Of a stretch of 64,000 bases of DNA, positions 34,108 to 62,141 are shown piece by piece. The position numbers were made by a program, and so were the translations under genes. The DNA lies in the NCBI GenBank assembly GCA_930990515.1, contig CAKNPS010000001.1, positions 103,280-167,279 on the forward strand, in the 5' to 3' direction. Numbering within the stretch: the first letter of the stretch is position 1; the number at the start of each line of letters is the position of its first letter. The DNA comes from an uncultured Clostridia bacterium (lineage in GTDB: Bacteria > Bacillota > Clostridia > Christensenellales > UBA1242). The notes beneath the pieces are model-generated. The model ran no database searches. It was not told the DNA's origin and saw only the letters and a program-made list of their open reading frames with translations.

Positions 34108-34119
34108 AATTTTAACTGT

Positions 34120-36348: not shown

Positions 36349-36902
36349 TTCCTTCTTGGAAGTCTTGCTTCGCTTCTTTTTCTTGAAAGCACAAACAAAC
36401 TTTCTTTAAATCTTTCTTCCCATATCTCCGCGTCCTCACTAAGTCCGTCTATAAGAAGATACTCGCTGGCAATTCCATAAGCAAAAATTCTTGCAGAAAG
36501 CCCATTATAAAAAGTAAAGTCGTCATTAAGTTCTTCTTTTTCAGGAAGAAAAGAATACGTTATTTCTTTGGCTCTACCAAAAATTTCAACATATTCTGGA
36601 TATGTTTTATATCTTACATTCCTTCCAAAACTTCCCTTAATTTGATATATATTTATAATAGTCTTACTGAGAGTTGAAAAATTTAAAATGGAATTATTAA
36701 CATCAATTTCTTCTGTTATAAGATATGGTAAGTAGTCGCTGGCGATTTCTTCATTCACAAAATTAAAACACCTAAGTAAACTATCCACTTTTTCCTGTTC
36801 CTTTGCTGAGTAAGTTACTGTCTCTTGACTATTTAACTTTTCAGCAAGTTCTTTTTCTCCAATAAATTCACACGCATAAGCAATAATTTCTTTAACTTTC
36901 AT
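36339..36902 (-). CDS. putative head-tail adaptor/connector protein
   Basis: About 187 aa from ATG 36902 (MKVKEII...), overlapping both neighbours. The call is by position only. Confidence 0.35.
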   Translation of the reverse strand: MKVKEIIAYACEFIGEKELAEKLNSQETVTYSAKEQEKVDSLLRCFNFVNEEIASDYLPYLITEEIDVNNSILNFSTLSKTIINIYQIKGSFGRNVRYKTYPEYVEIFGRAKEITYSFLPEKEELNDDFTFYNGLSARIFAYGIASEYLLIDGLSEDAEIWEERFKESLFVLSRKRSEARLPRRKWL

Positions 36903-37212
36903 ATAGCCTTGCCTCCACTTCATTTAAAATATTTTTCTTACGCGATTTTTCAAGTCTTTCATTTTCCGCGTCCAATTCTTTAATTAATTCGTCTCGCTTT
37001 TGACTTTGTGTTTTAAGTGTTAAATCAATCGTTCTTTCATCAAGACAATCAAAAGGAAGGGTCAAACAATATGTCCCTTCCTCTTGTCCACAGTTGTGAA
37101 GTTCAAATGTTTTTCGCGAAATATTGTAAACAACAAAGTAGTCCTTATCAATTTCCTTTAAACGCTTGATTATGTCTTGACAATCGCTATATATTTCAAA
37201 TGAATTATTCAT
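36892..37212 (-). CDS. hypothetical phage protein
   Basis: 106 aa, immediately downstream of the capsid gene, with a C-terminal coiled coil. Confidence 0.45.
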   Translation of the reverse strand: MNNSFEIYSDCQDIIKRLKEIDKDYFVVYNISRKTFELHNCGQEEGTYCLTLPFDCLDERTIDLTLKTQSQKRDELIKELDAENERLEKSRKKNILNEVEARLYES

Positions 37213-37231
37213 ATTTATCCTTTTTTATTAA

Positions 37232-38434: not shown

Positions 38435-38450
38435 TCTTTTCTCCTTTTAA

Positions 38451-39089
38451 TTAGGAAAACAAATTTTTAAGATAATCTTTTGCATCTTTTAAATTTTGGG
38501 GTTTTTGAGTGGCAGTCGAAGTTGCCACCCTTTTCCCCGCGGAAGATATTTTTATTGGCGATTTGTTTTCCGTTAATTGATTTACATATTTTTCTAGGAC
38601 TATGTTCTTAAGTTTTTCATTCCCTAAAACATAGTTTGCAACTTCCCCATCGGTCTCGCTTGACCCTTTAAGTTTTTCAAAAATCATCTCTGCCCAAACG
38701 TAGCTAAAGGGGTCGTCCATTTTTTTTAGACTTTCATTTTCCAAAACTCTTTTTTTGAGTTCTTCGGAATATGAATTTGCCTCACCGTTTGAAGAAAGGA
38801 ATGTTTTAAGTTTGTTATCCACTTGACTATCAAGTTCTTTTTCTTCTTCCATCTTATCTTTCTCAAATTCGGCTAGCCTTTGGCTTTTTTTCGTGAACTC
38901 TTTTTCAAGGTTGTTATAGGCATCAAGTAGAGCCTCAACATTTTTAAATTTTCCAACTTTTTCACCGTTTTCCGCTTTGCTCTCTTCTCCTACAATAGCA
39001 CTTTGTTCACCTTGCTGGGAGCCGTCATTAGTTTCATCATCTAAAACTAAATCTTCTGGTTGTTCCCAGTATTTTTCATCTTCATTCAT
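38451..39089 (-). CDS. phage scaffolding protein
   Basis: 212 aa with an acidic N-terminus and long helical/coiled-coil content, located between the portal and capsid genes. Confidence 0.55.
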   Translation of the reverse strand: MNEDEKYWEQPEDLVLDDETNDGSQQGEQSAIVGEESKAENGEKVGKFKNVEALLDAYNNLEKEFTKKSQRLAEFEKDKMEEEKELDSQVDNKLKTFLSSNGEANSYSEELKKRVLENESLKKMDDPFSYVWAEMIFEKLKGSSETDGEVANYVLGNEKLKNIVLEKYVNQLTENKSPIKISSAGKRVATSTATQKPQNLKDAKDYLKNLFS

Positions 39090-39094
39090 ATTTT

Positions 39095-40936
39095 TTAACC
39101 TTCCTTTATAAGTTTTTTATGTTCTCGAATATGTTTCAAAAAGATTTCTTCAGTTTCTTTATCTGCTTCCTTAAAGAAGTTCCCAGAAAGCATATAAGCA
39201 ATATGTTCGTTGATGTGCAAATTGTGGTCATCAATCTCCTTAACTTCCACATTTTCTTTTTCCATCATATCAAGATTTTCATTATCCGCTCTTTTAATTT
39301 GAAGTTCGTTTAAATCTTTAACATCTTCCCAAACACCAAAGCCTATCATTTCCAAAATCTTATTTTTCATTGTGGTGGAAATTTGGCCATTTTCGTCAGA
39401 TAAAAGTCCTTTGTCGAGCAAAGTATAAATCATATTTCTTCTTTGCGACAATGTGTCATTGCTTTCAACTTCGGTGTCAAGTTCAACATCATCGCTTGAA
39501 ATATCGCTAGATTTAAAATAAAAGATTTCAACATCGCCATTTTCTCCAACAATTTTGGTTAATCTTGGAAAAGTTGCGTATTGCTTATATAATCTTAAAA
39601 TTTGTTTGCCAATAAGTTTGATTGCTGATTTTATGCTGTCCGTTGTGAATGACAAGCGTGTTTCATTTTCATCAATCAAAAGTTCGAGTGCCACCCCACT
39701 TATAGTGGAAGAAATGGAGTCCATAGTTCCCATTTCTGTCGTTCCACTGATTGTGGTAAATTCATTTAATAATCTTTCTTCTTCCTTCTCAAAATCAGTT
39801 GGTAAAGTTTCCGTTGCCAAATATTCTGGTGGATTTGCTCCCTGCCTATAAACCAAAATTTTGCCAGGTGCAAGTCCTTCTTCTTCCAAATTATCAATGT
39901 CCACACTGCCGTCTTCCACTGAAAGCACACCAAGAGTTAATCGATTTAAATATTCGTGTTTACGATTTTTAACGGCATTATATGCTCTTTGAATAGGAAT
40001 CATTCTATCAATAAGACTAACACCCCAAAAACTTCCCACATTGTCACAACAAACCTGTTTAATAAATGGGAAATCGCGTTTTCCATCAGTTCCATTGATG
40101 TATGGCAATTCTCCGTCAAAAACCAATTCTTCGCCTGCCACAATGATTAATCTTCCATTTGGATATTCTTCACTTGGTCTAACATATTTTTCAATCACAA
40201 TTCCTGCATCTTGTTTTGTCACTTCAATAAGTTTTTGGCCAATACCAGTAAGTCCAAGTCCACCCACAGAAGCAGTGTTGTCAAGTGAAAAAACGTTAAT
40301 ATCTTCTCCTTCAATTTCCACACCATACATCTCTTTGATTTCATCTTTGGAATAAACCTTTGCGTGAATAATGCTTTGACAATCTTCCAAATTCTCGTTT
40401 GCAGTGCTGTCTGTATAAATTTCAAATGGCGAACAAACTGAAATGTCAACATCACCAGTTTTTATTTTTCGTCCGTCTTCTTCAATGGCAACAACTTGTC
40501 CAAGATTGCTGTTCCAATAAACTTTATAGAAACTCGTTCCACAAATTTCACTCCATTTTGTTGCTTGATTGATTTTTTGAGAAAGAGAATATTTATTTGC
40601 CACTGAGTCTAGAATTTTTTTAGACATCTTAGCGGTATAAACATCACTTTCATCATTACTTGCAGGAATAACTCGCATTTTAGGCTTAATTCTTGAAAGT
40701 TTTGATAGTCTTATATCAATTTTTGGTGCAATATGATTGAATACTTCGCGTTCTTGCCAAAAGTATTCCCTATTCGTATCATCAAGAAGTCCACCAAAGC
40801 CGACCGAACAAAATTGATTTCCCATATAGAAATTCATATTAAGTCGCCACTTAAGGTCAAAACTTTTTCTTTCGTTCACGCGTCTAGCAAAATCGTCAAG
40901 GACTTCTTTCACCAATTCATTTTCAATTTTCTTCAT
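39095..40936 (-). CDS. phage portal protein
   Basis: 613 aa. N-terminal KWRLNMNFYMGNQF, central FPFIKQVCCDNVGSFWGVSLIDRMIPIQRAYN (portal wing/stem pattern), and first position in the head module. Confidence 0.65.
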   Translation of the reverse strand: MKKIENELVKEVLDDFARRVNERKSFDLKWRLNMNFYMGNQFCSVGFGGLLDDTNREYFWQEREVFNHIAPKIDIRLSKLSRIKPKMRVIPASNDESDVYTAKMSKKILDSVANKYSLSQKINQATKWSEICGTSFYKVYWNSNLGQVVAIEEDGRKIKTGDVDISVCSPFEIYTDSTANENLEDCQSIIHAKVYSKDEIKEMYGVEIEGEDINVFSLDNTASVGGLGLTGIGQKLIEVTKQDAGIVIEKYVRPSEEYPNGRLIIVAGEELVFDGELPYINGTDGKRDFPFIKQVCCDNVGSFWGVSLIDRMIPIQRAYNAVKNRKHEYLNRLTLGVLSVEDGSVDIDNLEEEGLAPGKILVYRQGANPPEYLATETLPTDFEKEEERLLNEFTTISGTTEMGTMDSISSTISGVALELLIDENETRLSFTTDSIKSAIKLIGKQILRLYKQYATFPRLTKIVGENGDVEIFYFKSSDISSDDVELDTEVESNDTLSQRRNMIYTLLDKGLLSDENGQISTTMKNKILEMIGFGVWEDVKDLNELQIKRADNENLDMMEKENVEVKEIDDHNLHINEHIAYMLSGNFFKEADKETEEIFLKHIREHKKLIKEG

Positions 40937-41153
40937 TTTTCCTCCTTCTTAATGTTCTGTTTGGTTTGTAGTGTGAATCTATTGCTTTTGGAACAAAAAT
41001 CTTTGATAATTCAGTGTATAGGTTTTTCATACACTCTTCACAAAAAGCAAATTCATTTTTGAAAAGTCCACGAGTGGAAACATAATAGTCTGCTAGGTTT
41101 CTGCACCCACCAAAATCACATTTCACTTTGTGTGTACATTTTTCAACTTTCAC
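40923..41153 (-). CDS. small Cys-rich (zinc-ribbon-like) protein
   Basis: 76 aa with CxxxxxCxxxxC...CxxC and a basic tail RTLRRRKNEEN. It overlaps the TerS-like stop and the portal start. Confidence 0.45.
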   Translation of the reverse strand: MKVEKCTHKVKCDFGGCRNLADYYVSTRGLFKNEFAFCEECMKNLYTELSKIFVPKAIDSHYKPNRTLRRRKNEEN

Positions 41154-42335: not shown

Positions 42336-43119
42336 TTTTTCTAAGTCGCATCAGTTGTATGTCAGTAAACTCAAAAAAGATAAGTTTATCGTCATATTTT
42401 TCAGAATATTCATTTTAGTTGCATTCATAGGACTTTGGGAACTACTCACCTACTTAAAAGTCCTTGACCCTTTCTTTTTTTCCAGTCCATCAAGAATTGT
42501 CGCCACACTTGGCGATTTAATCAGTGCTGGCACACTTTTTCATCACGCTTGGGTAACACTTTATGAAACCTTAATCGGTTTTGCGATAGCCACAGTTTTA
42601 GGCTATTTAATTGCAGTTGCACTTTGGTGGAATGAAAAGGTTAGGAAGATTTTTGAGCCATATATCATTGTTTTAAATTCCTTGCCAAAAATTGCACTTG
42701 GCCCAGTGATTATTCTTTGGGTTGGTGCAGGAACAAGTGCCATAGTTTTGATGTGTGTGCTTATTTGCATCGTAATCACAACAATGTCAATGCTCTCCGC
42801 ATTTATTGCTTGTGATGAAGGAAAAATTCTTTTACTTAAAAGTATGCACGCAAACAAATTTCAAATTTTATGGAAATGCGTTTTACCAAATTCAATGCCA
42901 GACTTTATTTCCGTTTTAAAAATTAATGTGGGAATGGCTTGGGTTGGTAGCATTATGGGCGAATATTTGACAAGTAAAGCAGGACTTGGCTATCTCATTG
43001 TCTATGGCGGTCAAATCTTCAAGATTGACCTAGTTATGACCGCCACCTTTGTCCTTTGCATACTCGCCTTCTTGATGTATTTTCTTGTTAGTCTTCTGGA
43101 AAGACGATATAAAAAATAG
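42307..43119 (+). CDS. ABC transporter permease (NitT/TauT-type)
   Basis: Six TM segments with a binding-protein-dependent transport inner-membrane fold. It overlaps the ATPase stop. Confidence 0.85.
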   Translation: MKNKKITATSFSKSHQLYVSKLKKDKFIVIFFRIFILVAFIGLWELLTYLKVLDPFFFSSPSRIVATLGDLISAGTLFHHAWVTLYETLIGFAIATVLGYLIAVALWWNEKVRKIFEPYIIVLNSLPKIALGPVIILWVGAGTSAIVLMCVLICIVITTMSMLSAFIACDEGKILLLKSMHANKFQILWKCVLPNSMPDFISVLKINVGMAWVGSIMGEYLTSKAGLGYLIVYGGQIFKIDLVMTATFVLCILAFLMYFLVSLLERRYKK

Positions 43120-44052
43120 AAGAAGGAAAATTGCCATAACTGACGAAACTGGATAGAGATAAGAAACGATATAAGAAAAACCACATTCACTGATTAAAAA
43201 TGGAAGAAAAATGGAAAGAGAAAGAAGCAAAACTTCACTTTTAAAGAAATTTGATAAACTTTCTTTCAAGGTTAAACATAAAGAAAGAAGAGTGGTAAGA
43301 CAGCCAATAAAAATCACAATATAAGAGAGTGTAAAGAAAAATTTGTTCCCTTGACATAGATATAGAAAAGGCATATCAGCATAAAAACTTTCTGGGTGTG
43401 TTCTTAAAACAACATTCCCAAAAGTTAAAAACGCAAAAAGAAGAAGACTTGAAAACAGACTGATAAAAAAAGTCTGTTTTTTTGTGAGCTCATTCCCCGC
43501 TTTTGCCACAATGAAAGTGCTTGTTGAAAAATTGAGAGCAACATATAACGGAGAATATAAAAAACCAAAATGGCTTTTTGTTTCCATAATATATGTCGAT
43601 TTTTGAAAACATAAAAACACAAGAACACCAAGGAAAATAAAGGCACAAATAGGCATAATAAATGCTGTGAACTTTTCCAGCATTTTCATACCTTTCAGTG
43701 TTATATATAATGTTAAAAGTAAAAGCCCAGCACAAAGTAAAATGTAAATAAAAGAACCAGAAAAAGAAAACAAACTTTTTAAGCCTGCAAACATAGATGC
43801 AGTAAACACAATGGAAATAAAAATCATAATAATGTTTATTATCTTCAAATTTTCAAACTTTTCCGTTACCTTGCTCCCTTTGGATAAAAAGAGATAAAAA
43901 AGAAAGAAAAAGAGAACGCAAGCAATAAAGATATAAAGGTATGAAAGATTGCCAAACCTACTAAAAAAGACAAAAATTTCTTTTCCACTTGAAAAGCCAG
44001 AGCCAACAATAGTTCCAAAAATAAGAAAAACGATTGTCCAAACTTTTTTCAT
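43030..44052 (-). CDS. YkvI-like membrane transporter-family protein
   Basis: N-terminal GTIVGSGFSSGKEIFVFF motif and about 10 TM segments. There is no SD. Confidence 0.6.
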   Translation of the reverse strand: MKKVWTIVFLIFGTIVGSGFSSGKEIFVFFSRFGNLSYLYIFIACVLFFFLFYLFLSKGSKVTEKFENLKIINIIMIFISIVFTASMFAGLKSLFSFSGSFIYILLCAGLLLLTLYITLKGMKMLEKFTAFIMPICAFIFLGVLVFLCFQKSTYIMETKSHFGFLYSPLYVALNFSTSTFIVAKAGNELTKKQTFFISLFSSLLLFAFLTFGNVVLRTHPESFYADMPFLYLCQGNKFFFTLSYIVIFIGCLTTLLSLCLTLKESLSNFFKSEVLLLSLSIFLPFLISECGFSYIVSYLYPVSSVMAIFLLLFFISSFQKTNKKIHQEGEYAKDKGGGHN

Positions 44053-51380: not shown

Positions 51381-52400
51381 TTAACGCATTTGCTTTAAAA
51401 ATCTCATATCATTTCTAAATAGGTATTTAATGTTAGGAATTTTATTTAAAACCATAACACTTCTGTCAATACCAGGTCCAAAGGCAAAACCCGAATATTT
51501 CTTACTGTCAATTCCAGACATTTCCAGAACTTTTGGATTGACAACTCCTGCCCCAAAAACTTCTGAAAACCCAGAACCTTTGCAAAGTGAACAACCTTTT
51601 CCACCACACATTTGACAAGTTGCATCAATTTCAATTGAAGGTTCAGTGAATGGGAAATATGAAGGACGAACACGCATTTTAACATCTTCGCCGAATAAAC
51701 GCTTCAAAATTGTGTCAATCATTTTCATTAAATCTTTAAGACCAACATTCTCATCAACCACAAGTGCTTCAAATTGATTAAAGATTGGAGAATGAGAACT
51801 GTCATCATCATTTCGATAAACTCTCCCAGGACAAACAATTTTAAATGGTGGTTTAATTGTTTCCATTGCGTGAACTTGCATATTTGATGTTTGAGTACGA
51901 AGCACAATGTTGTCAGTAATGTAAAGTGAGTCTTGCATATCTCTTGCAGGGTGATTTTTTGGAACATTCAATGCTTCAAAGTTATAGTAGTCAGTGTCAA
52001 TTTCTGGTCCTTGAATAACAGTAAAGCCCATTTCCACGCAAATATCCATAAATTTATTATTAAATCGTGTTAAAGGGTGAAGGGAACCTTTCTTAATCCC
52101 CTTGCTTGGCATTGTTATGTCAACTCTTTCTTTTTCCATTTCGACTTCAAGTTGTTGTTCTTCTAAGACTGCAAGTTTTTTAGACAATGCTTCTTCAATT
52201 TTGTTTCTAACAACATTTGCAAGCATACCAACATCTTTTCTTTCTTCTGCTGGAATTTCTTTCATATTTCGTAAAATTGCAGTAAGTTCGCCTTGTTTGC
52301 CCAAAAACTTAACACGCACATCATCTAATGCTTTCAAATTATCAGCATTTTCAATTTCACTTAAGCCATTTTTCAAAATTGCATCTAATTTCTCTTTCAC
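51381..52400 (-). CDS. pheS: phenylalanine--tRNA ligase alpha subunit
   Basis: Class II motifs (HPARDMQDSLY, FRNDDDSSHSPIFNQFE, GFAFGPGIDR). GTG start after GGAGAG. Confidence 0.96.
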   Translation of the reverse strand: MKEKLDAILKNGLSEIENADNLKALDDVRVKFLGKQGELTAILRNMKEIPAEERKDVGMLANVVRNKIEEALSKKLAVLEEQQLEVEMEKERVDITMPSKGIKKGSLHPLTRFNNKFMDICVEMGFTVIQGPEIDTDYYNFEALNVPKNHPARDMQDSLYITDNIVLRTQTSNMQVHAMETIKPPFKIVCPGRVYRNDDDSSHSPIFNQFEALVVDENVGLKDLMKMIDTILKRLFGEDVKMRVRPSYFPFTEPSIEIDATCQMCGGKGCSLCKGSGFSEVFGAGVVNPKVLEMSGIDSKKYSGFAFGPGIDRSVMVLNKIPNIKYLFRNDMRFLKQMR

Positions 52401-52420
52401 TTTGCTCTCCTTTTAAACAA

Positions 52421-52661
52421 AAAAAATGCCGTCCTATTATTAGGACGACATAGCCGTGGTACCACCTAACTTTATGCTTATAGAAGCACCTTAATTTTGC
52501 ATTTTACGCCTGCATACGCGACAACCCCTACACAAGATAAACTCTTCAAGGTGCAACTAGAAAGTGAATTCAATGCCACATTCCTTGCCTTATTTCCAGC
52601 AACCAAAGGCTCTCTGTAAGAAACTTTTTGACATCTACTAGTCTTTCATCATCGTTTTTAC
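52421..52661 (-). promoter_or_regulatory. T-box riboswitch leader (Phe, specifier UUC) controlling pheST
   Basis: On the minus strand: AGAGA in Stem I, specifier loop GAA-UUC-A (UUC at 52568-52566), the conserved T-box AGGTGGTACCACGG (52467-52454), and then terminator GTCGTCCTA-ataa-TAGGACGGC plus T8 (52450-52421). Confidence 0.88.
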
Positions 52662-52667
52662 ACTCAA

Positions 52668-52696
52668 ATTATAATCATTTAATAAAGTTTTGTCAA
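52668..52696 (-). promoter_or_regulatory. sigma-A promoter of the pheST T-box leader
   Basis: On the minus strand: TTGACA (52696-52691), 17 nt spacer, TATAAT (52673-52668). Confidence 0.75.
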
Positions 52697-52723
52697 GTAA
52701 AAATGGAAACTTGTTAGCATATT

Positions 52724-52751
52724 TTGAAAATCAGCAAATTTATGATAAAAT
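52724..52751 (+). promoter_or_regulatory. sigma-A-type promoter of the pseudouridine synthase gene; leaderless geometry
   Basis: TTGAAA (52724-52729), 16 nt spacer, TGa-TAAAAT (52746-52751), then 6 nt (ATACCC) and ATG 52758. There is no SD. Confidence 0.5.
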
Positions 52752-52757
52752 ATACCC

Positions 52758-53684
52758 ATGGGAACAATCATTAAACCTAAAAATAATTTAACTAATTCAC
52801 AAAACAATATTAATAAAGAAACGCAAATTAACTACTATAAAATTTCAGTTTCAAACATTGTTGAAAAAACAAATGTTTATCTATATCTTCGCAAAAATGG
52901 TTTTTCCGAACATTATCTTAAAAATTTAAGAAACAAAGATAACGCAATTTTAGTAAACAACTCTCCTTCCACTGCACGAACACTATTAAATAATGGAGAC
53001 ATCTTAGAAATTGATAAAAATCCTTATTCTCCAACAAAAATTAAAAAAGTTGAAAAAGATATAGACGTGGTCTATGAAGATGAAAATTATCTCCTTGTAA
53101 ACAAGCCACCACTTCTTGCCACAATGCCCACAAAATCACACTATGAAGACAATCTTGCAGGACGAATTGTGGCATATATAAATGATGACAGTTTCACACT
53201 TAGAGTTTTTAATCGCCTAGACAGAGAAGCATCAGGACTTATTCTTATTTCAAAAGATGCAATTACTCATCAATTTACAGAAATATTAAATAAAGAATAT
53301 TATGCAATATGTCACGGAATTTTGGAAAATAAAACGATAATTGAAAAACCTATTTTAACAATAAATAATAATGGCATAAATGAAATGAAAAGGGTAATTT
53401 CCCCACTTGGTCAATATGCAAAAACAACTTTAACTCCTGTTAAAGCACTAAATGGTAAAACTTTATTAAAAGCTGAGATAATAAAAGGAAGAACACACCA
53501 AATTCGTCTGCACTGTGCGTCAATAACACATTCTCTTATTGGTGACAAAATTTACGGAATAAATGACGAATTTTCTCACACATTTTTACACTTAAAGTCA
53601 ATCTCATTTTATAATAAACTACTTAACAAAAACTATCATTTTGAAATAAATCTCCCAGAAGAATTTGAAAAAGTCATAAAATAA
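52758..53684 (+). CDS. RluA/RluD-family pseudouridine synthase
   Basis: S4-like N-domain, catalytic RLDREASGL, and GRTHQIRLH. Confidence 0.9.
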   Translation: MGTIIKPKNNLTNSQNNINKETQINYYKISVSNIVEKTNVYLYLRKNGFSEHYLKNLRNKDNAILVNNSPSTARTLLNNGDILEIDKNPYSPTKIKKVEKDIDVVYEDENYLLVNKPPLLATMPTKSHYEDNLAGRIVAYINDDSFTLRVFNRLDREASGLILISKDAITHQFTEILNKEYYAICHGILENKTIIEKPILTINNNGINEMKRVISPLGQYAKTTLTPVKALNGKTLLKAEIIKGRTHQIRLHCASITHSLIGDKIYGINDEFSHTFLHLKSISFYNKLLNKNYHFEINLPEEFEKVIK

Positions 53685-53701
53685 AATGAATTTTAACAAT
53701 G

Positions 53702-53726
53702 AAAAAAGACCTTGATGGTCTTTTTT
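53702..53726. terminator. bidirectional rho-independent terminator
   Basis: AAAAAGACC-ttgat-GGTCTTTTT with A/T runs on both sides. It serves the convergent rluD-like gene and the small ORF. Confidence 0.8.
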
Positions 53727-53737
53727 CATTTTGGGAA

Positions 53738-53887
53738 CTATTTGCATTTTTTTGAAGACTTACTAGATTTTGCTTCTCTTCCAGCTTCGCAATTTCTTGC
53801 ATTTGAAGAAGTTCTTGAAGAAGTTTCTCTCCCTGCTTCAGCATTTGAGCAGTTTTTACAAGCCTTCTCTTTCTTTTTACCAAACAT
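53738..53887 (-). CDS. small Lys/Ser/Cys-rich protein (49 aa), unannotated in the track
   Basis: GGGAGG lies 6 nt upstream of the ATG. Translation: MFGKKKEKACKNCSNAEAGRETSSRTSSNARNCEAGREAKSSKSSKKCK, with internal repeat NC..EAGRE x2. A terminator follows 11 nt after the stop. Confidence 0.5.
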   Translation of the reverse strand: MFGKKKEKACKNCSNAEAGRETSSRTSSNARNCEAGREAKSSKSSKKCK

Positions 53888-54030
53888 AGTTTACCTCCCA
53901 TTTTTCAAGGAATATTTCCTTGTTAATTATATTGTTATTAAAAAAACAATTTTTATTCAAAAATAGAGAAAATAAGCAAAATTTTTTGAAGCAATTAAAA
54001 CAAAACAATGTAATTAAAAATAACAAACTT

Positions 54031-54064
54031 TAAAATAAAAATACCCTTAGCATTTCTAAGGATA
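54031..54064 (-). terminator. rho-independent terminator after the DUF1292 gene
   Basis: On the minus strand: CCTTAG-aaatg-CTAAGG followed by gTATTTTTATTTT. Confidence 0.6.
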
Positions 54065-54084
54065 TTTTTTACTTTAATAAACGA

Positions 54085-54477
54085 TTATTTCTTAGCTTTC
54101 TTTTTATTTTTAGTAGCTTCTTTATTTGCTTCTTCAACAAGATTATAATATTCGTCAAAAATCTTAATAGCAATTTCTTGGTCTGCTTCTGGTCTTAAAG
54201 TTGTAGGCTTTGTTGTTTCGTCACATAAAAAGACAATTGCTTCATCGTCTTTAACACCTTCAATTTTATCAATAGGTTTTAGAACAGCATAAATTTTGTT
54301 GTCATAAGGAACGATTGCAACTTGTTCAAATCTAATTCTTTTCCCTTTGTCATCTTCTAAAACAATAGGATCAGTGTCATTTTGATCCAATAAAACATCT
54401 AAAATATCAAAATCTGACATTTCTTTTTCAACATCATTTGAAATTTCTTCAAGTTTTTTAACTTTATTCTTATCCAT
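54085..54477 (-). CDS. DUF1292 (YrzB-like) protein
   Basis: The start was moved to ATG 54477 (MDKNKV), after AAGGGGA. The core reads LEDDKGKRIRFEQVAIVPYDNKIYAVLKPID...DEAIVF. Confidence 0.8.
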   Translation of the reverse strand: MDKNKVKKLEEISNDVEKEMSDFDILDVLLDQNDTDPIVLEDDKGKRIRFEQVAIVPYDNKIYAVLKPIDKIEGVKDDEAIVFLCDETTKPTTLRPEADQEIAIKIFDEYYNLVEEANKEATKNKKKAKK

Positions 54478-54496
54478 AATATTTTCCCCTTTTCTT

Positions 54497-54916
54497 TTAT
54501 TTATTTTCATCAAGATAGTTTTGTAAGATTATCTGAGCGGAAACTTTATCAAGAAGTTTTTTCCTATCTTCCCACTTGAGTCCTGCTTCCTTCAAATATT
54601 CTTCAGCTTCAAAAGATGTATATCTTTCATCTTGATAAAAAACTTTGATTTGTGAATAATCTTCAAGAGCTTTTCCAAAATCTTTAACTTTCAAAGACAT
54701 TTCACTTTCAGTGCCATCTGCATTGAGCGGTAACCCAAGAACAATCCCCGAAACATCATTCTCTTTTGCATAAGAAGAAAGATAATTTAAATCTTCTTCA
54801 TGCCCCCGACTTTTATATATGCTATCAGCAGTAGCAATTGTCGCGGTGTAATCAGAAAACGCAATTCCAATTCTCGAATTACCATAATCAAGTCCCATAA
54901 ATCTTTTATATTGCAT
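54497..54916 (-). CDS. ruvX: YqgF/RuvX-family putative pre-16S rRNA nuclease
   Basis: MGLDYGNSRIGIAFSD...ERYTS motif; 139 aa. Confidence 0.92.
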   Translation of the reverse strand: MQYKRFMGLDYGNSRIGIAFSDYTATIATADSIYKSRGHEEDLNYLSSYAKENDVSGIVLGLPLNADGTESEMSLKVKDFGKALEDYSQIKVFYQDERYTSFEAEEYLKEAGLKWEDRKKLLDKVSAQIILQNYLDENK

Positions 54917-54999
54917 ATATCACCATTTATATTTTAACTTAAAGAAAATTAATTGTCAAATAAATTTCGAAAATATATTTTTTATTTAATTAAAAAATC

Positions 55000-57900
55000 T
55001 TATAATACACAAGCAAAATTTGCTAAAGCGATAGTGACTCTAAAACCTAACATCATATCCATATCAGTTTGCGTAACCGAGCCAAATCTTGTGATACTCT
55101 CGCCCACTTTTATATTGCTTCCTAAACCTCTTGTCCAATACATTTTGCCTCTTAACATGTCGCTCACTAAATCGCTATATTCTGCCTCACACTCTCCAAA
55201 CACTTCCGCTATTTCCTCGACATTTGAAACTATATAATTTGCAGTCAATATTTCGTCTGTTTCCGAATCTAAAATTCCATTATTTATATTCATATACTTA
55301 TCTACTGTGAAATTTCGCGTCGCTAAAAGTTCTGTATCTATGGTTGTGCTGGAAATTAAGCTGTTTGAGTTGGTGTATAAATCAGACTCAACAAAGCCTT
55401 CTCCTAAACTCAACCCAACACTATCAAACACACTTGTAAAGACTATCTTCTCTGTTACCGCTGTCACATTCGCACTTTCTGTACCAAATTCTTCTTCGTA
55501 TTCTCCTGCTAAAACATATCTTACTGATAAAACCTTGTAATATGTGTTGTTCGATGACAAATACGCATATTCTTCTCCGTTAAAGGTATATGAATTTAAA
55601 GCATTTCCTCCCATTTGATAAGTTTGAGTAATGGCACTTTCTGAATTTCTTAAATTGTCTAGCTCTGAGATGATTCCACTGTCCGTCACCCTATCTTGTG
55701 GAAACATTCCCATTTCCACATACCAGTATCCTTTCTCTTCGTCAAAATGTGCCGGATTTGTCGCTTCCCATTTAGCATAAATTGTAGCATCACTTGTTGT
55801 AAAATTATTGTTTCCAACAATATTTCCAGTTTCGTCGATAATTTGATTTCCTAAACCATTTTGCAAAGTATAATATCCACCAAAATCATAGCCCGCTTTT
55901 TCGCGAAGCCCAACTACACTCTCAATTGTATAAATTTGATTAGTTGTTGCACTGTCAGAATAGAAACCAGTATCATATTTTATAAAAATTGTCGAAGCTG
56001 ACTCGCCATTTTCGTGCTCAAGTGTAATTTCATAGGTAATAGGTTGCCAAACAGCGTATAAAGTCACCGACTGTGATGCGCTGTAAGTTTGATTAAACAT
56101 ATAATTTTCACCAGGATAATAGCTTGGACTGGTTGCTATGTTTGAAGTTGACCAACCTAGGAAATTATATCCTGTCCGTGTTGGAATACTATTCGAAATT
56201 GTAAAACTAATTGAGTTTCTTATATTCCCACACTGGTTCCAATATTGTGCTGATGACAATGTAACATTTGTGCCAGAACCTCCGTTAAAATTAAAATAAA
56301 GATAAACGGAACGCCAAGAAATTGCATACCAAGATAATGTTGATGTGCTTTGAGTGTAAGTTGTATCTGAAATTGTTGTATTACCAGCATATCTTCTTTC
56401 GATAGTTGAATTACTGAAAGCCCAACCATATAAACTCCAACCATTAGAATTATAATAAGGTAGATATGAGGCGGAACGTGTTGTGAAACTTTGGTTATAA
56501 GTTCTTATTTGCGTGTCAGAACTTGTTACTCCGCTACTATTTCGATAATGATAAATGTTGTTATAAGTTTTTGCCGTCCATCTAGCATAAAGTGTATGAT
56601 TAGCAGTTTGTGTGAAAACTGTTGAAGAAGTTACAGGGCTGCCTGTAAAACTAGAATTCGTATACCAACCGTTGAAAGTGTAACCTGTTCGAACAGGTGT
56701 TGGAAGAGTGCCATAAGCTTCTCCATACTCCACAGTAATAGGAGCTAACGGCTCTTCAAAGGAAATATCTGAAACTTTTTGGACTGCACAATTTCTTATG
56801 TATAAGTAATCACCAGACTGCCATTCTGATGAATAAAATGTAAAAGCAAAAAAATCATAATTAATAGCAGTGAAAGTATTTGTAAACGTTTGCCAAGAAG
56901 ATGTTATTGTTTCAGTTGTTCTTTCACTCATTTCATGGCCAAAATAATCAATATTAATAGTTCGAGAAGCTCTTAACTCAATACTCCACTTATATTCTTC
57001 TCCAACAGTCAAAGGAACTCCTTCTAAGTATGGGCCACTTTGATCGCTTGTCGAATTTGAAGTCAAAGATATAACCACATTTTGCGAGTTTCCTTCAATA
57101 GTAGATGTCGAAGCGCCAGTTACGGAATTAAATTGCACAGAATATGGATACCGAACATAGTTATCCGAATCAAAATTAATATAATAAGTATTTGACATCT
57201 GAATTACGATTATATCGTCCCAGTCACCTGGATCATGACCAGTAAATGACGCAGTATAAGTATATGTTCCATCACTTTCAACAATAGTTCCTCGTGAACA
57301 AGTTACGCTTTCAACATAATAACCTGTGGTAGGTATAATATTTGAAATCCTAATCTCTTGATCTTTTCCACAATATGGGTCTTGCTGGTCAGTAATATTA
57401 CTATAAGAGCTTCCTGAGTATTGGTTCCAAGTATTCATTGTTCCACTTAAATAATCTTGTACCCCACTGGGGTTTAATATGTTTATATCAATATTATATA
57501 AATATTCCATTTGAATTGTAATAATTATATCCATTCCTCCAGTAGGCGTTCCATAATCTTGTATATTGGATCCTGGCCAAGAAAGAGAAAAGATAAAAGA
57601 GCCATTATTACTAGTCCTCGATATTAATGCGCTAATATAAACAGTATATGTAATGTACTTAAAATAATAACCTGTGGTTGGTGTTATATTCCAAATCATA
57701 AGAGAAGAACCTGCAACCAAATATACTTCACCTTGCTCGTTGTTAACATTGGTGTAATTTTGATTTCCCCAATGTGTACTATAATTCATTGTCCCACTAT
57801 TAAAATCTTGTTCTCCGTTAGGGTTCAAAATATTTATATCAACTCTATATCTTTTTAATGAAAGATATACATCAAAAGTAATGGAACCATTGCCAAAAAT

Positions 57901-58422
57901 ACCAGTTTGCAAGTGATGTCTATGATATGTATCAGTTATGTTCGCATTACAACCAGAACAATAAATATGGTCAAAAGCAAAACCTCTTATACCACCATAA
58001 GCACCATTATTATTTAAACCTGAAAATCGAACAGTAGGATACCAGTTATTCCATAAAGTCTCACTATGACTTAAAGTAGTAGTTGCACTATTTATACTAA
58101 TAGTTTCTGAAACTTGAGTTCCACTCTTCCCTTCTATCCAAGCACTTGCAGTCCCAGTATAAGCAGAATCATATTTATTTGTAGTATAATCTCCAGTAAC
58201 TAATTGTCTATAAACACGTAAAGTTATAGTTACTGTATTTTGAATTTGTATATCGTCACTATCGTCTAATATAGGGTCATTATTTTGTGAATCATCAGAG
58301 CCGTTTGAATTATCTTCATTTTGTGAATTGTCTATTCCCTCCCCCGCATCTTCTGAATAGGAAGAATTGTCAGTGCAAGCGGATAAAATCAGTCCGCCAC
58401 CGATGACGGTAAAAGCAAACAA
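55000..58422 (-). CDS. large repeat-containing cell-surface lipoprotein (Listeria-Bacteroides/InlB-B-type repeats); 5' end displaced by an A7 frameshift
   Basis: The open frame contains ...GGGLILSAC (lipobox), an Asp/Asn/Ser-rich linker, two ~120-aa tandem domains (Y[RN][VI]DINILNP.G.QD..SGTMN...I.PTTGYY), and three G(Y)xFxGW...LYAxW repeats (TGYTFNGWYT, TGYNFLGWST, AGYDFGGYYT). The natural ATG (58459) is 1 nt out of frame. Confidence 0.8.
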   Translation of the reverse strand: MFAFTVIGGGLILSACTDNSSYSEDAGEGIDNSQNEDNSNGSDDSQNNDPILDDSDDIQIQNTVTITLRVYRQLVTGDYTTNKYDSAYTGTASAWIEGKSGTQVSETISINSATTTLSHSETLWNNWYPTVRFSGLNNNGAYGGIRGFAFDHIYCSGCNANITDTYHRHHLQTGIFGNGSITFDVYLSLKRYRVDINILNPNGEQDFNSGTMNYSTHWGNQNYTNVNNEQGEVYLVAGSSLMIWNITPTTGYYFKYITYTVYISALISRTSNNGSFIFSLSWPGSNIQDYGTPTGGMDIIITIQMEYLYNIDINILNPSGVQDYLSGTMNTWNQYSGSSYSNITDQQDPYCGKDQEIRISNIIPTTGYYVESVTCSRGTIVESDGTYTYTASFTGHDPGDWDDIIVIQMSNTYYINFDSDNYVRYPYSVQFNSVTGASTSTIEGNSQNVVISLTSNSTSDQSGPYLEGVPLTVGEEYKWSIELRASRTINIDYFGHEMSERTTETITSSWQTFTNTFTAINYDFFAFTFYSSEWQSGDYLYIRNCAVQKVSDISFEEPLAPITVEYGEAYGTLPTPVRTGYTFNGWYTNSSFTGSPVTSSTVFTQTANHTLYARWTAKTYNNIYHYRNSSGVTSSDTQIRTYNQSFTTRSASYLPYYNSNGWSLYGWAFSNSTIERRYAGNTTISDTTYTQSTSTLSWYAISWRSVYLYFNFNGGSGTNVTLSSAQYWNQCGNIRNSISFTISNSIPTRTGYNFLGWSTSNIATSPSYYPGENYMFNQTYSASQSVTLYAVWQPITYEITLEHENGESASTIFIKYDTGFYSDSATTNQIYTIESVVGLREKAGYDFGGYYTLQNGLGNQIIDETGNIVGNNNFTTSDATIYAKWEATNPAHFDEEKGYWYVEMGMFPQDRVTDSGIISELDNLRNSESAITQTYQMGGNALNSYTFNGEEYAYLSSNNTYYKVLSVRYVLAGEYEEEFGTESANVTAVTEKIVFTSVFDSVGLSLGEGFVESDLYTNSNSLISSTTIDTELLATRNFTVDKYMNINNGILDSETDEILTANYIVSNVEEIAEVFGECEAEYSDLVSDMLRGKMYWTRGLGSNIKVGESITRFGSVTQTDMDMMLGFRVTIALANFACVL

Positions 58423-58449
58423 AATAACATATAATGTAAAAATTATGTA

Positions 58450-58456
58450 TTTTTTT
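58450..58456 (-). repeat. homopolymeric A7 tract directly after the ATG of the lipoprotein gene (candidate slipped-strand phase switch)
   Basis: The minus strand reads ATG-AAAAAAA-TAC. With A7 the ATG frame stops after 29 codons. With A6 (or A9) it reads MKKYIIFTLYVILFAFTVIGGGLILSAC into the 1140-aa frame. Confidence 0.8.
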
Positions 58457-58465
58457 CATATTCAC

Positions 58466-58494
58466 ATTATAAAATATATTTTAATTTTTTACAA
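58466..58494 (-). promoter_or_regulatory. sigma-A-type promoter of the lipoprotein gene; leaderless geometry
   Basis: On the minus strand: TTGTAA (58494-58489), 17 nt spacer, TATAAT (58471-58466), 6 nt (GTGAAT), then ATG 58459. There is no SD. Confidence 0.5.
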
Positions 58495-58586
58495 ATAAAA
58501 TAATTTATTTTATTAAATTTTTTAATAATTTTCATTTTAATTATGTTATACAAGAAAATTTGCAATTTTTTTAAGCCACATAAAAC

Positions 58587-58611
58587 AAAAAAAGATAGAA
58601 TTTCTATCTCT
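58587..58611 (-). terminator. rho-independent terminator after efp
   Basis: On the minus strand: AGATAGAA-a-TTCTATCT followed by TTTTTTGTTTT. Confidence 0.65.
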
Positions 58612-58629
58612 TTTACTCTAATTTTTTTA

Positions 58630-59190
58630 TTATTTAACTTTTTCCATATATGATCCGTCACGAGTATCCACTCTTATTATATCACCAATGTTAACAAAAA
58701 GTGGAACATTGATTGTGTAACCAGTGATAAGTTTTGCTGGTTTCTTTGAAGCCTTTGATGTGTCGCCTTGAATTCCTGGCTCAGTGTCCACAACTTCAAG
58801 TTCAACAAATGTTGGTGGATAAACTGCAAAAGGCACACCCTTATACATATACATAGTTGTGTTCATATTTTCTGTAACAAAATTTAAAACATCAGCAACC
58901 ACGTCTTTATTTAAAGGCATTTGCTCATAAGTTTCATTATCCATAAAATAATAAAGTTCGCCATCGTTGTAAAGATAAAGCATATCTTTCTTTTCAATAA
59001 CCGCTTCTTGAAATTTGTCAGATGGATTGAAAGTGTCCTCTCTAACTTGTCCTGTCATAACATTTTTAATTTTTGCTCTAACAAATGGAGAGCCTTTACC
59101 AGGTTTTACGTGTAAGAAGTCAACAACGTTGTAAACTGCTCCGTCCATTTCAAAAGTAGTTCCTTTTCTAAAATCTCCTGCTGTAACCAT
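58630..59190 (-). CDS. efp: elongation factor P
   Basis: [16 protein letters not shown] loop and three OB-like domains; 186 aa. Confidence 0.96.
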
Positions 59191-59309
59191 AAAAATCTCC
59201 TTAATTTTTTAATTTAATATAGTATTCAAATTTAAGAAAGGTAAAAACAATTCTTAAATTCAAAAACTAAAAAGCCAAATTGACTTTTAACTCAATTAGT
59301 ATAACATAC

Positions 59310-60173
59310 TTAACTGCGATTTGCAAGTGTTTTCAAATAAATATCTTTCATTGTTTTGCTATCTTCTGCCATTGTTCCTGAAGATTCACAAATAATATGG
59401 CAAGAAAGGTCATAATCAATAAGAACATTCACCAAATCTTCAAAATATGGTCCATAAATTGTGTCATCAAAAGTCAAGTGCCTTATTTCGCCTTTTGCAC
59501 CATATTGAATTTTTGAAAAATGAATATGTGCATTTTTAGTTCTTTCTTCGCCAAGTTTTTCAAAAGAATAATCAAAAATTCTTTTATAGTCATCTGCACT
59601 TTTAAGAGAACCTTGTGTTAATGCATTTATATGCCCAAAATCAAAAGTTGGAATAAGTTTTTTAGAAATTGTGCAAAGGTCAATAATCTCTTTATATGTT
59701 CCAATTTGCATAACCTTTCCCATAGTTTCAGGACAGAGATATTTATCTCCCAATTCTTCTTCAAAGGTTGGCATAATTTCTTTAAGCCTATTCGTCATCA
59801 AAGAAACTGCTTCTTCTCGCGTTTGTTTTCCACAAGAAGCAGGGTGAAAAACCATTCTATCTGCTTGCAAACTTTTCATAAATTTTATGCCGGTGTTTAT
59901 GTAACCTATGCTTTTGGTAAACATTTCTTCGTCAGGGTTAGCGAAATTTATAAAATAAGGTGCGTGGAGCGAAAGAACAATTCCTTCTTTTTTAAATTCT
60001 TCCCCAAGTTTTAAAGCGGTTTCAGTTGTCATACGATAACCTTGTCCAAAACTATATTCAAAAATGTCAAGTCCCCTTTCTTTGACCCATTTTGGTGTGT
60101 CAAAAGAAGATTTAAAACCTTCTTCATAAAAAGAAAGACTATTTCCTGCAGGTCCAAACAAAACTTTCCCCAT
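59310..60173 (-). CDS. TIM-barrel protein of the xylose-isomerase-like / AP endonuclease family 2 (endonuclease IV-like)
   Basis: 287 aa with His-rich metal-ligand pattern (LHAPYFINF, VFHPAS, FDFGHI, HIHFS...ICES). Confidence 0.6.
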   Translation of the reverse strand: MGKVLFGPAGNSLSFYEEGFKSSFDTPKWVKERGLDIFEYSFGQGYRMTTETALKLGEEFKKEGIVLSLHAPYFINFANPDEEMFTKSIGYINTGIKFMKSLQADRMVFHPASCGKQTREEAVSLMTNRLKEIMPTFEEELGDKYLCPETMGKVMQIGTYKEIIDLCTISKKLIPTFDFGHINALTQGSLKSADDYKRIFDYSFEKLGEERTKNAHIHFSKIQYGAKGEIRHLTFDDTIYGPYFEDLVNVLIDYDLSCHIICESSGTMAEDSKTMKDIYLKTLANRS

Positions 60174-60185
60174 AAATTTCCCCTT

Positions 60186-61055
60186 TTAAAAATCGGCTAA
60201 TCTTATTTTCATTTTTAAGTTTTTTTCTCTAACTTCTCCAACTCCTAAAAATTGATTATTAAAGTAAATCTTGTAAAAAGCATCTTTAAAATCAATAATT
60301 AATTGTTGACCATTTTTTAACTTAAAAAAGTCATTTTCGCTTAAGTTTATAATATCATAATCAAATAAATTTTGGCAAGGAATAATCTCAAAATTTCCTT
60401 TTTCAATATCTTCTAATAAATAAGCATCTTTTATGCAGAATACACCACATCTTGTGCGTAGTATGCATTGCATACTACCATAAGTGCCAAGTTTATATGC
60501 CAAATCACGACAAACACTTCTTATGTAAGTTCCACTTGAACAAGTGATTTCAAAGCGGAAAGTTCTGTTATTAATCTTCTTCAAAATCTTGAACTCATAA
60601 ATTTCCACTTCTTTTGGCGATAAATTGATTGTTTCTCCAACTCGTGCAAGTTTATACCCCACCTGTCCATTGACTTTTTTTGCACTATATTGTGGTGGCA
60701 TTTGCATATACTTTCCAATCATTGAATTAACTGCCATTTTTAACTCATTATCACTAAAATTCACTTCACATTCTTTAACAATTTTTCCTGATGTGTCCAA
60801 AGTGTCCGTTTCAAAACCAAAAACAAATTCTGTTTCATAAGTTTTATCTTTTTGAAGATAAAAATCAAACAATTTTGTGGCATTATTTATTGTGACTGGC
60901 AAAAGTCCTTCTCCTTCCAAGTCAAGAGTCCCTAGATGCCCGCATTTTTTTGCACCTAACTTAAATTTAACAATGTTTACCACTTTGTTAGAAGAAATAC
61001 CTTTCGGCTTATTTACTAAAACAATTCCGCTATCTTTAAATCTATATTCTTTCAC
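60186..61055 (-). CDS. truB: tRNA pseudouridine(55) synthase
   Basis: VNKPKGISSNKVV and catalytic GHLGTLDLEGEGLLP. Confidence 0.94.
   Translation of the reverse strand: MKEYRFKDSGIVLVNKPKGISSNKVVNIVKFKLGAKKCGHLGTLDLEGEGLLPVTINNATKLFDFYLQKDKTYETEFVFGFETDTLDTSGKIVKECEVNFSDNELKMAVNSMIGKYMQMPPQYSAKKVNGQVGYKLARVGETINLSPKEVEIYEFKILKKINNRTFRFEITCSSGTYIRSVCRDLAYKLGTYGSMQCILRTRCGVFCIKDAYLLEDIEKGNFEIIPCQNLFDYDIINLSENDFFKLKNGQQLIIDFKDAFYKIYFNNQFLGVGEVREKNLKMKIRLADF
60458..60478. repeat. palindromic repeat family, copy H (inside truB)
   Basis: A perfect 21-bp palindrome GTAGTATGCA-T-TGCATACTAC that encodes GSMQCIL in the conserved TruB core. Confidence 0.75.
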
Positions 61056-61121
61056 AGAGAGTCGTTGACTCCTTTTATTTTTATTTAATATTGTTAAGAT
61101 TATATAAAATTAAATCAAAAT

Positions 61122-62141
61122 TTAAAATTCTTCACAAATTTTCTTTAATTTATGTTTTATGGCATTTTTATTTCCATACAAATTAAAGCCTGCAGCCATT
61201 TGATGTCCGCCACCACCGTGGTGCTGAGCAACTTTTGAGACAATAAAACCATTCTTTGAGCGACAACTTACTTTATATTTGTTTTTGTCAATCTCATAAG
61301 CCACCATAATAACATTAAAATCTTTAATGTTATTTAAGCTGTTTACATAGAATTTCACATCATCAACAGTTGCTTTTAGTTTTTTCATAACCTTGGTCGT
61401 CACAACAATATAACAAATATTTTTTCCTTCAACATGGTAGTTATCCAAAAGATATTTTTGTAGTTCAATTTTTTCTCTTGTTATTGAACGATAAACAACA
61501 TCATAAATCTTTTGAATGTCAATACCATATTCCATAAGCTTAACAATACATTTAAAAGTGTCTAAATCAGTGTTAGTATTTAAAAATCTTTCAGTATCTC
61601 CCACAATACCAGCAAAAATGTATGAAGCTGTTTCATAATTGAGTTTAAATTTATATGTGAATATTAAATTTGCGACAATCATACTTGCAGCACAAACATC
61701 GCTTTTTATATAAAATTTGCAACCACTTTCAATTATGCTATGTTCGTGGTGGTCAATGGCAAGAATATTTTTGTGTGCTTGCACCTTTTCTCTAAATTTA
61801 ATATCAATTCTTGAAAATTCATTGCAATCAACCATTAAAACAAGGTCGAATTTAGAAGGTTCAAAATCTTTTTCAACCACACTCTTGTCAAAAATTTGAT
61901 TTAAAAATGATGTTTCTGGATTATTTGCAAAAAGATGAGCTTCAGTTCCTAATTTTTCACATAAATATTTTGCACCAAACATAGAGCCATAACAATCTAA
62001 ATCAGGGTTGACATGACCAAAAATTGCCACATTTTTTGCTGAAGAAATAATGTTTTTAACTTCTTCTTCATCAACATATTGTGAATTTTTCGCGTTTAGT
62101 TCTTCTTCTCGGCTTTTCTCAATAATCTTATTCTTCATCAT
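61122..62141 (-). CDS. nrnA: DHH-family phosphoesterase (NrnA-type oligoribonuclease/pAp phosphatase)
   Basis: DHH motifs (GHVNPDLDCYGS, AIDHHEH) and DHHA1 motif GGGGHQMAAG. Confidence 0.88.
   Translation of the reverse strand: MMKNKIIEKSREEELNAKNSQYVDEEEVKNIISSAKNVAIFGHVNPDLDCYGSMFGAKYLCEKLGTEAHLFANNPETSFLNQIFDKSVVEKDFEPSKFDLVLMVDCNEFSRIDIKFREKVQAHKNILAIDHHEHSIIESGCKFYIKSDVCAASMIVANLIFTYKFKLNYETASYIFAGIVGDTERFLNTNTDLDTFKCIVKLMEYGIDIQKIYDVVYRSITREKIELQKYLLDNYHVEGKNICYIVVTTKVMKKLKATVDDVKFYVNSLNNIKDFNVIMVAYEIDKNKYKVSCRSKNGFIVSKVAQHHGGGGHQMAAGFNLYGNKNAIKHKLKKICEEF

Follow-up and report, generated by a model that had tools for sequence, protein, structure and literature searches.

Homopolymers at the extreme 5′ coding end of surface protein genes can turn expression ON or OFF by the change of one nucleotide. 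Classical contingency loci of this kind are the poly-G tract of Neisseria pilC and the poly-G/C tracts in the signal-peptide coding region in Campylobacter and Helicobacter. Such tracts typically have at least 8 nt, exceed the length that composition predicts, recur in several genes of a genome, and differ in length within one culture. Phase-variable loci of this type switch at about 1e-5 to 1e-2 per generation, far more often than the background mutation rate. Variation of the p78 gene of Mycoplasma fermentans was found by experiment to be of high frequency and reversible within clonal populations. The tract in this gene consists of 7 A at the 5′ end of a lipoprotein gene (as summarized in PMC2831843). 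A related case is inlA of Listeria monocytogenes, where a 5′ poly(A) tract gives rise to frameshift alleles (Orsi, Bowen and Wiedmann 2010, BMC Genomics 11:102, PMC2831843). According to the same source, the inlA tract varies about 1000-fold above the point-mutation rate, at about 1e-7 in absolute terms. A 1-nt change in it leaves an 8-aa product, and the resulting allele circulates beside other premature-stop alleles.

A locus resembling these systems lies on the minus strand of the window, which denotes here the whole 64-kb stretch of DNA that was analysed, from an uncultured Clostridia bacterium. The minus strand at the locus reads ...TATAATGTGAAT ATG AAAAAAA TAC ATA ATT TTT ACA..., and our re-reading agrees with the earlier note that the run of seven A directly follows the ATG and that the ATG frame ends after 29 codons. 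The features of the locus are the following.

58466–58494, minus strand: promoter-like site TTGTAA-17 nt-TATAAT, with 10 of 12 matches and a perfect −10 hexamer, ending 6 nt before the ATG.
58461, minus strand: SNP at position −2 relative to the ATG; the window has A, and A6 alleles with the standard upstream sequence have T.
58457–58459, minus strand: start codon (ATG) of the lipoprotein gene; in A6 alleles it is the true start, and the 1152-aa orthologues begin here.
58450–58456, minus strand: A7 tract; the ancestral A6 encodes Lys2-Lys3 of the signal-peptide n-region, and the extra A shifts the frame by +1.
58370–58459, minus strand: out-of-frame ORF opened by the ATG, 29 codons, MKKIHNFYIICYFVCFYRHRWRTDFIRLH*, with the stop TGA at 58372–58370.
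58375–58386, minus strand: lipobox L-S-A-C in the long-ORF frame; the Cys at 58377–58375 would be the lipidated first mature residue, and the motif is conserved in relatives.
55000–58422, minus strand: long ORF of 1140 codons from a TTG at 58422 without a Shine-Dalgarno (SD) sequence; InlB B-repeat (List_Bact_rpt) putative surface lipoprotein, otherwise intact.

The 1140-codon ORF is one base out of register with the ATG frame, and a TGA codon stands in its frame at 58458–58456. Translated from 58452, the long frame reads KYIIFTLYVILFAFTVIGGGLILSAC TDNSS..., and the translated A6 version of the window gene starts with MKKYIIFTLYVILFAFTVIGGGLILSAC. A one-unit change in the run toggles the frame: A6 gives a protein of 1152 aa, and A7 leads to a stop after 29 codons. 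In the window, the long ORF stays open for 1140 codons despite the A7.

The likeness to inlA, as far as that gene is described in PMC2831843, is close. In both cases a Firmicute surface protein gene carries a run of 6–7 A within its first dozen nucleotides, and a 1-nt change leaves no more than a very short peptide (8 aa in inlA, 29 aa here). However, the roles of the two lengths are swapped: A7 keeps inlA in frame and A6 breaks it, and in the gene of the window A7 is the broken state and A6 the in-frame one. InlA is also LPXTG-anchored, unlike the lipoprotein of the window. The two proteins are not orthologues and have at most internalin-family repeat types in common, the match here being to the InlB B-repeat PF09479. 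Similarly, the locus shares with p78, as summarized in the same paper, a tract of 7 A close to the 5′ end of a surface lipoprotein gene, where a 1-nt change inactivates the gene. Unlike in p78, the tract length here goes stably with a flanking SNP, and the assemblies gave no sign of switching; the host also differs, being a Clostridia bacterium that forms spores and reads the standard code. The window allele fits most closely the inlA kind, a null allele at a hot spot that is reversible in principle. We read the window as carrying a natural, stably inherited frameshift allele, null or nearly so, of a non-essential surface lipoprotein gene, produced at a mutational hot spot and not by a dedicated fast switch, with a probability of about 0.72.

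The product of the gene matches PF09479 (E=1.5e-17, 63.9 bits against a cut-off of 27) and TIGR02543 (E=2.2e-14); a PDB sequence search with the lipoprotein gave no match. Compared with the public protein collection, the frame-corrected protein falls in one 90%-identity cluster of 68 members, whose representative is 1152 aa long, 99% identical, and has the N-terminus MKKYIIFTLYVFLFAFTVIGGGLILSAC. Full-length 1152-aa MKKY proteins account for 7 of the 15 cluster members listed. Lipoprotein signal peptides were recognized by the lipobox pattern [LVI][ASTVI][GAS]C together with a basic n-region and a hydrophobic core. The A6 alleles have such a signal peptide, MKK-YIIFTLYV(I/F)LFAFTVIGGGLI-LSAC, and the window itself has it only after frame correction. 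Distant relatives in other species show N-termini of the form MKK/MKR...GGGLLLSGC. Because the 1152-aa MKKY orthologues and the distant relatives share them, the ATG is taken as the ancestral start and the lipobox signal peptide as a family feature. The ancestral gene begins with ATG AAA AAA TAC; its signal peptide combines an MKK n-region with an LSAC lipobox, and about 1120 residues with InlB B-repeats follow. The proposal of the earlier note that the ATG is the intended start, and that one A fewer yields a lipobox surface protein, is borne out by the 1152-aa MKKYIIF...LILSAC orthologues in other assemblies. It had also placed the lgt gene in the window, where none of the ORFs tested matches PF01790 or any other Lgt model.

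Several public proteins, three of them (P0021, P0034 and P0023) among the 15 listed cluster members, have other N-termini. The window's own TTG-start product is present in the public collection as an exact entry (P0021), on 1 contig, and P0034, from a different allele, starts at the same TTG. P0023 is 1155 aa long, starts with MWIWKKYIIF..., and is found on 4–5 contigs. P0008, with an 'MSGC...' start, was considered as a second 5′-truncated family member and rejected; its DNA has an intact in-frame ATG AAA AGA, and the short form reflects the start chosen by the gene caller.

No SD-like motif was found upstream of the ATG, as compared with an SD in 38 of 46 window genes (83%). A leaderless start is suggested by this lack together with the −10 hexamer ending 6 nt before the ATG, and the A of the ATG is likely the transcription start. 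A relative in another species has a matching layout, TTGTGA-17-TATCAT-6-ATG, and in two other SD-less genes of the window a −10 hexamer is followed by 6 nt and then ATG. The lack of an SD at the TTG, which the earlier note had held against that codon, is confirmed, and a product started there would lack the basic n-region. As an argument about the start, however, the missing SD does not discriminate, since the ATG is equally SD-less.

The length of the tract was compared in DNA of 26 loci with the gene taken from other assemblies, 24 of which include the start region. A7 is found in the window and 5 loci (2 haplotypes), and A6 in 19 loci of at least 8 haplotypes, including the sister lineage. 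Two of the A7 loci, L001 (ERZ1478584 scaffold_99, 519 kb) and L002 (ERZ27234800 k141_119258, 225 kb), are identical with the window over 9.3 kb around the gene; some of the assemblies with the window haplotype may be re-assemblies of the same reads. L003/L004 (ERZ1643253 / ERR2834350) carry A7 in a second strain, about 1.4% diverged in the flanking genes. The sequence GTGAATATG-A7 occurs in the window and in 5/5 A7 loci, and GTGATTATG-A6 in 18 loci; the one remaining A6 locus, L016, differs in its upstream sequence. The A7 state is thereby perfectly linked to the A/T SNP at position −2 over 24 loci and about 10 haplotypes. A6 is also what the sister lineage (L018) and every other haplotype carry. 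By comparison of these sequences, A6 is the ancestral state and A7 the derived one. Pattern scans of JGI metagenomes for further alleles found none, and a scan of species-representative genomes for the start region returned the sister-lineage MAG only.

These data bear on the possibility of a homopolymer sequencing or assembly error over a real A6, which the earlier note had named as the alternative. Homopolymer length is a classic error mode, and one of the A7 assemblies has a low coverage of 6.7x. Nevertheless, A7 is given by several assemblers and datasets (the window, ERZ1478584, ERZ27234800, and ERZ1643253/ERR2834350), in assemblies of short-read style whose contig names suggest MEGAHIT (k141), a scaffolder, SPAdes and Logan, and it appears in two strain backgrounds, always with the linked substitution nearby. 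Outside the lipoprotein gene, no coding homopolymer indel was found in the 9.3 kb across 10 haplotypes, and all other genes of the 64-kb window are intact despite its 56 A/T runs of at least 7. The agreement among datasets and assemblers, the linked substitution and the lack of coding indels in the flanking genes make an error very unlikely, and this alternative is effectively excluded.

The A7 tract is not the only lesion of the gene. Other strains carry changes at the following positions of the window.

56848–56854, minus strand: T7 run; T8 (frameshift) in the second A7 strain (L003/L004).
58341–58345, minus strand: G5 run; G6 (frameshift) in the strains behind L014 and L015.
58255, minus strand: C in the context GTGA(C)GAT; deleted (frameshift) in the strains behind L016 and L017 (two samples).
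55768–55770, minus strand: TGG (Trp897); TAG nonsense codon in the A6 strain behind L005 and L006.
55930–58008 (approximate boundaries), minus strand: about 2.1 kb that the copy of the sister lineage (L013/L018, L019, L020) has lost by deletion.

With A6>A7 included, 6 independent lesions are found among about 10 haplotypes. Only two runs in the lipoprotein gene reach a length of at least 6, the A run and the T7 run, and both have been hit by +1 changes. Changes of +1 in the longest homopolymers make up 3/6 lesions, each reversible in principle, and the nonsense codon, the non-repeat deletion and the 2-kb deletion are irreversible inactivations. The frameshift at 58255 is not attributable to slippage, since its context is no repeat. 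Across the same 10 haplotypes, no frameshift indel was found in the flanking truB, AP-endonuclease, efp, ruvX and rluD; the gene-call tables of these other assemblies do list one split rluD. The occurrence of a frameshift allele in natural strains together with several other premature-stop alleles of one gene is a further likeness to inlA, as that gene is presented in PMC2831843. Loss of the gene is clearly tolerated; overall, its function has been lost repeatedly, with short homopolymers typically being the hot spots. That about 10 haplotypes hold six independent lesions points to recurrent selection for loss, for instance by phage or host pressure. The pN/pS among alleles is about 0.14–0.8, which indicates a gene kept functional by purifying selection now or until recently, and no old pseudogene; within the A7 lineage, substitutions were too few for pN/pS and private-substitution counts to inform on relaxed selection. 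The sister-lineage copy of the gene is only 2–5% diverged, compared with about 17% for its flanks, and this difference would fit recombination.

A true phase variation was proposed in the earlier note, and in its full form it would consist of high-frequency slipped-strand switching between A6 (ON) and A7 (OFF) in clonal populations, serving as bet-hedging for a surface antigen or phage receptor. Part of that proposal stands. The repeat length is polymorphic among natural isolates, both tract lengths existing in nature, and the change is placed exactly where it toggles the frame of a large surface protein. The T7 and G5 runs also carry +1 frameshifts in other strains, and 5′ poly(A) precedents are known in M. 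fermentans p78 and L. monocytogenes inlA (PMC2831843). The switch itself, however, is opposed by several observations. A7 is perfectly linked to the flanking SNP in the 24 loci, and both states in one lineage, uncoupled from flanking markers, were not found among the about 10 haplotypes in the assemblies. Every recovery of the window haplotype, including the contigs of P0021 and P0023, has A7. The in-frame (ON) version of the window allele is absent from about 15 billion public proteins, as judged by exact look-ups of the A6 forms MKKY..., MNMKKY... and MIMKKY... and the A9 form MKKKY.... The tract is short (6–7 A) and not longer than composition and codon usage predict. As AAA makes up 78% of Lys codons, A6 after the ATG is the default outcome for Met-Lys-Lys; 3 other genes in the window start with ATG-A6, the cytoplasmic ThiI among them. 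Irreversible knock-outs of the gene coexist in the species, and single Logan contigs cross the tract unbroken, which is weak evidence against mixtures within a sample.

The locus shares with classical contingency loci the homopolymer at the extreme 5′ coding end of a surface protein and the ON/OFF effect of 1 nt, but none of their length, multiplicity and within-culture features is seen here. It does not fit a classical contingency locus, because its state is coupled to a flanking marker and its tract lies within expectation. Frequent switching is disfavoured by the SNP linkage, the all-A7 window haplotype, the missing in-frame version in the collection, the ordinary tract length and the irreversible lesions in other strains, and we consider it unlikely. 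The polymorphism is genuine, but we found no evidence that it acts as a dedicated or fast switch. Minority A6 subpopulations, which are characteristic of phase variation, may nevertheless exist within samples. Given that 3/6 lesions are reversible homopolymer changes, the gene may also show contingency-type behaviour at the level of the population. A fuller version of this idea, to which we give a slim chance, holds that the lipoprotein serves as a receptor for phages or a target of immunity, that selection repeatedly removes it and homopolymers or recombination restore it, and that reiterative slippage of RNA polymerase at +4 to +10 of a leaderless A7 transcript might yield a small, tunable amount of in-frame mRNA.

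The A7 allele could alternatively be usefully expressed by recoding, that is, by slippage of RNA polymerase (A7 to A9, MKKKY..., or A7 to A6, MKKY...), by +1 ribosomal slippage, or by initiation at TTG 58422. The intact long ORF of 1140 codons agrees with such expression, as does the position of the run within the first 10 nt of the putative transcript (+4 to +10). Re-pairing of tRNA-Lys is possible on AAA-AAA-A, a +1 shift leads from the ATG frame into the long frame, and the following ATA is a minor Ile codon (14%). Efficient slippage needs runs of about 9 or more, and A7 is below that. In Buchnera endosymbionts, poly(A) frameshifts are rescued by transcriptional slippage (PMC2831843). The likeness lies in a poly(A) frameshift that arose in an AT-rich genome and that errors of the polymerase could conceivably rescue; the Buchnera runs have about 9–10 A or longer with heterogeneous mRNAs demonstrated, whereas the run here is A7. 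The out-of-frame layout, moreover, is not conserved: the ATG is in frame with the long ORF in the sister lineage, in the distant relatives and in most strains. A further frameshift (T8) has arisen in the second A7 strain, as expected for a dead gene, and the TTG has neither an SD nor a basic n-region in its product. Expression by recoding is on these grounds distinctly improbable. Frameshifting by −1 was also considered and rejected; the long frame requires +1 or −2, and the base preceding the run is G.

The protein P0023 would follow from genetic code 4 (TGA = Trp), in which the gene is in frame from an ATG at 58467–58465, with ATG TGA ATA TGA AAA AAA TAC read as MWIWKKY.... Its presence in public data, and an N-terminus that would still resemble a signal peptide, speak in favour of this reading. 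However, the 48 long code-11 ORFs, which cover about 85% of the window with 18,031 codons, contain 0 in-frame TGA against 87 TGG. TGA ends 4/48 genes, and the Pfam match of PolA reaches the last residues directly before its TGA. All Trp residues of the lipoprotein are encoded by TGG (23/23), and the host is a SpoIVB-encoding member of Clostridia, no mycoplasma. The ATG at 58467–58465 lies inside the −10 hexamer, and its frame is closed in A6 strains. Code 4 has next to no chance of being right; the public 'MWIWKK...' protein is a genetic-code-4 annotation artefact, presumably produced when the gene caller chose a code-4 model for a low-GC contig.

The preferred reading, a heritable null allele, can be laid out as a series of steps. 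Transcription would start from TTGTAA-17-TATAAT and produce a leaderless mRNA, on which translation could begin only at the 5′ AUG. Replication slippage extended the A6 run of the two AAA Lys codons by one A. Ribosomes that initiate at the AUG would then make a nonsense peptide of 29 residues, MKKIHNFYIICYFVCFYRHRWRTDFIRLH, predicted to be the sole product of the leaderless AUG. The long frame would be reachable solely through the internal SD-less TTG, giving a product without the basic n-region. Little or no lipoprotein would be made, and the A7 allele is most likely OFF. Such an allele would persist by being tolerated, possibly favoured, because the gene is dispensable in the species, with at least 6 independent knock-outs across strains. 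Reversion from A7 to A6 is mechanistically possible, at the rate expected for a short poly(A) run, about 1e-7 as in Listeria inlA (PMC2831843). The presence of A7 in two strain backgrounds could reflect some retained function or periodic reversion.

The A7 allele reveals no new mechanism. It is a known kind of 5′ poly(A) null allele, as in inlA, in another species, and it adds, from an uncultured gut-type Clostridia species, another case in which short 5′ poly(A) runs are the commonest route for silencing a dispensable surface protein. For annotation, the gene in the window is to be recorded as a frameshifted (disrupted) allele; a call as a TTG-start protein of 1140 aa, or as the 'MWIWKK' protein of code 4, should be avoided.

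The window belongs to a chromosome of 32% G+C and encodes SpoIVB, trigger factor, ClpXP, TopA, RuvABC, Tgt/QueA, PolA, PheST and IF2/IF3. A small prophage-like block also lies within the window.

The copy of the lipoprotein gene in a sister lineage (CALVMX010000005.1, 'uncultured Clostridia bacterium BRZ_EA__bin76') was compared with window positions 52000-61500. The housekeeping flanks diverge by about 17% (488/2859 and 554/2910 positions), whereas the remnants of the lipoprotein gene, from which about 2 kb has been deleted, diverge by just 2.4-5% (11/450 and 50/931). The low divergence of the gene relative to its flanks suggests that it was recently exchanged between lineages by recombination.

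The start region of the gene also varies among strains. Residue 12 of the lipoprotein is Phe rather than Ile in most strains with six As after the ATG (GTT TTT TTG versus GTT ATT TTG; window 58420-58428, minus strand), and the Phe codon creates an additional T7 run within the signal-peptide coding region of those A6 alleles. In the strain carrying a 1-nt C deletion (L016 1-270 and L017 1-108, from assemblies ERZ4767198 and ERZ4767231), the region upstream of the promoter is unlike that of all other strains. The upstream sequence of L016 is TATAATATATG, with the distance from the -10 box to the ATG shortened by 4 nt, and L017 has other sequence in place of the -35 region. Since these changes lie close to contig ends, they could stem from rearranged or inserted sequence, or else from an artefact of assembly.

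The public 1155-aa protein 'MWIWKK...' for the window's allele (L001 3001-6468, ERZ1478584 scaffold_99) was rejected as spurious, the public gene call having used a model in which TGA encodes Trp. Such mis-calling with code 4 is possible for low-GC Clostridia contigs. Among the flanking housekeeping genes the sole disruption seen is in rluD of one assembly (L010 7774-8700, ERZ28614966), which is broken into ORFs of 120 and 180 aa; as there is no indel, the split is presumably caused by a nonsense substitution. In the alignment, the intergenic T run upstream of pheS (window ~52320) is T8 in the window versus T7 in four other haplotypes, an ordinary non-coding homopolymer length polymorphism.

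Besides the lipoprotein gene, two genes of the window that lack an SD have a -10-like hexamer 6 nt before the ATG:

3565-3573, plus strand: integrase start, TATAAT-ATGAAT-ATG
52740-52760, plus strand: rluD start, TAAAAT-ATACCC-ATG

This arrangement suggests that the organism expresses several genes from leaderless mRNAs. For infC, encoding IF3 (window ~29950-30030, minus strand), an apparent ATT start lies 7 nt downstream of the SD AAAGGAGA. The ATG ORF as listed (29519-29950) lacks the first ~22 positions of the IF3_N profile. The apparent ATT start is of the classical autoregulated AUU type.

A block resembling a prophage occupies 33600-41000 (minus strand), and several ORFs in it are without a family; the tyrosine integrase is separate from it:

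39095-40936, minus strand: P22-like portal, in the block
34120-34509, minus strand: holin-like protein, in the block
3565-4617, plus strand: tyrosine integrase

No Pfam match was found for three sizeable minus-strand ORFs, 665-1894 (409 aa), 26548-27339 (263 aa) and 43030-44052 (340 aa), and the latter two have no NCBIfam match either. The N-terminus of the 340-aa ORF, MKKVWTIVFLIFG..., looks like a signal peptide or membrane anchor.
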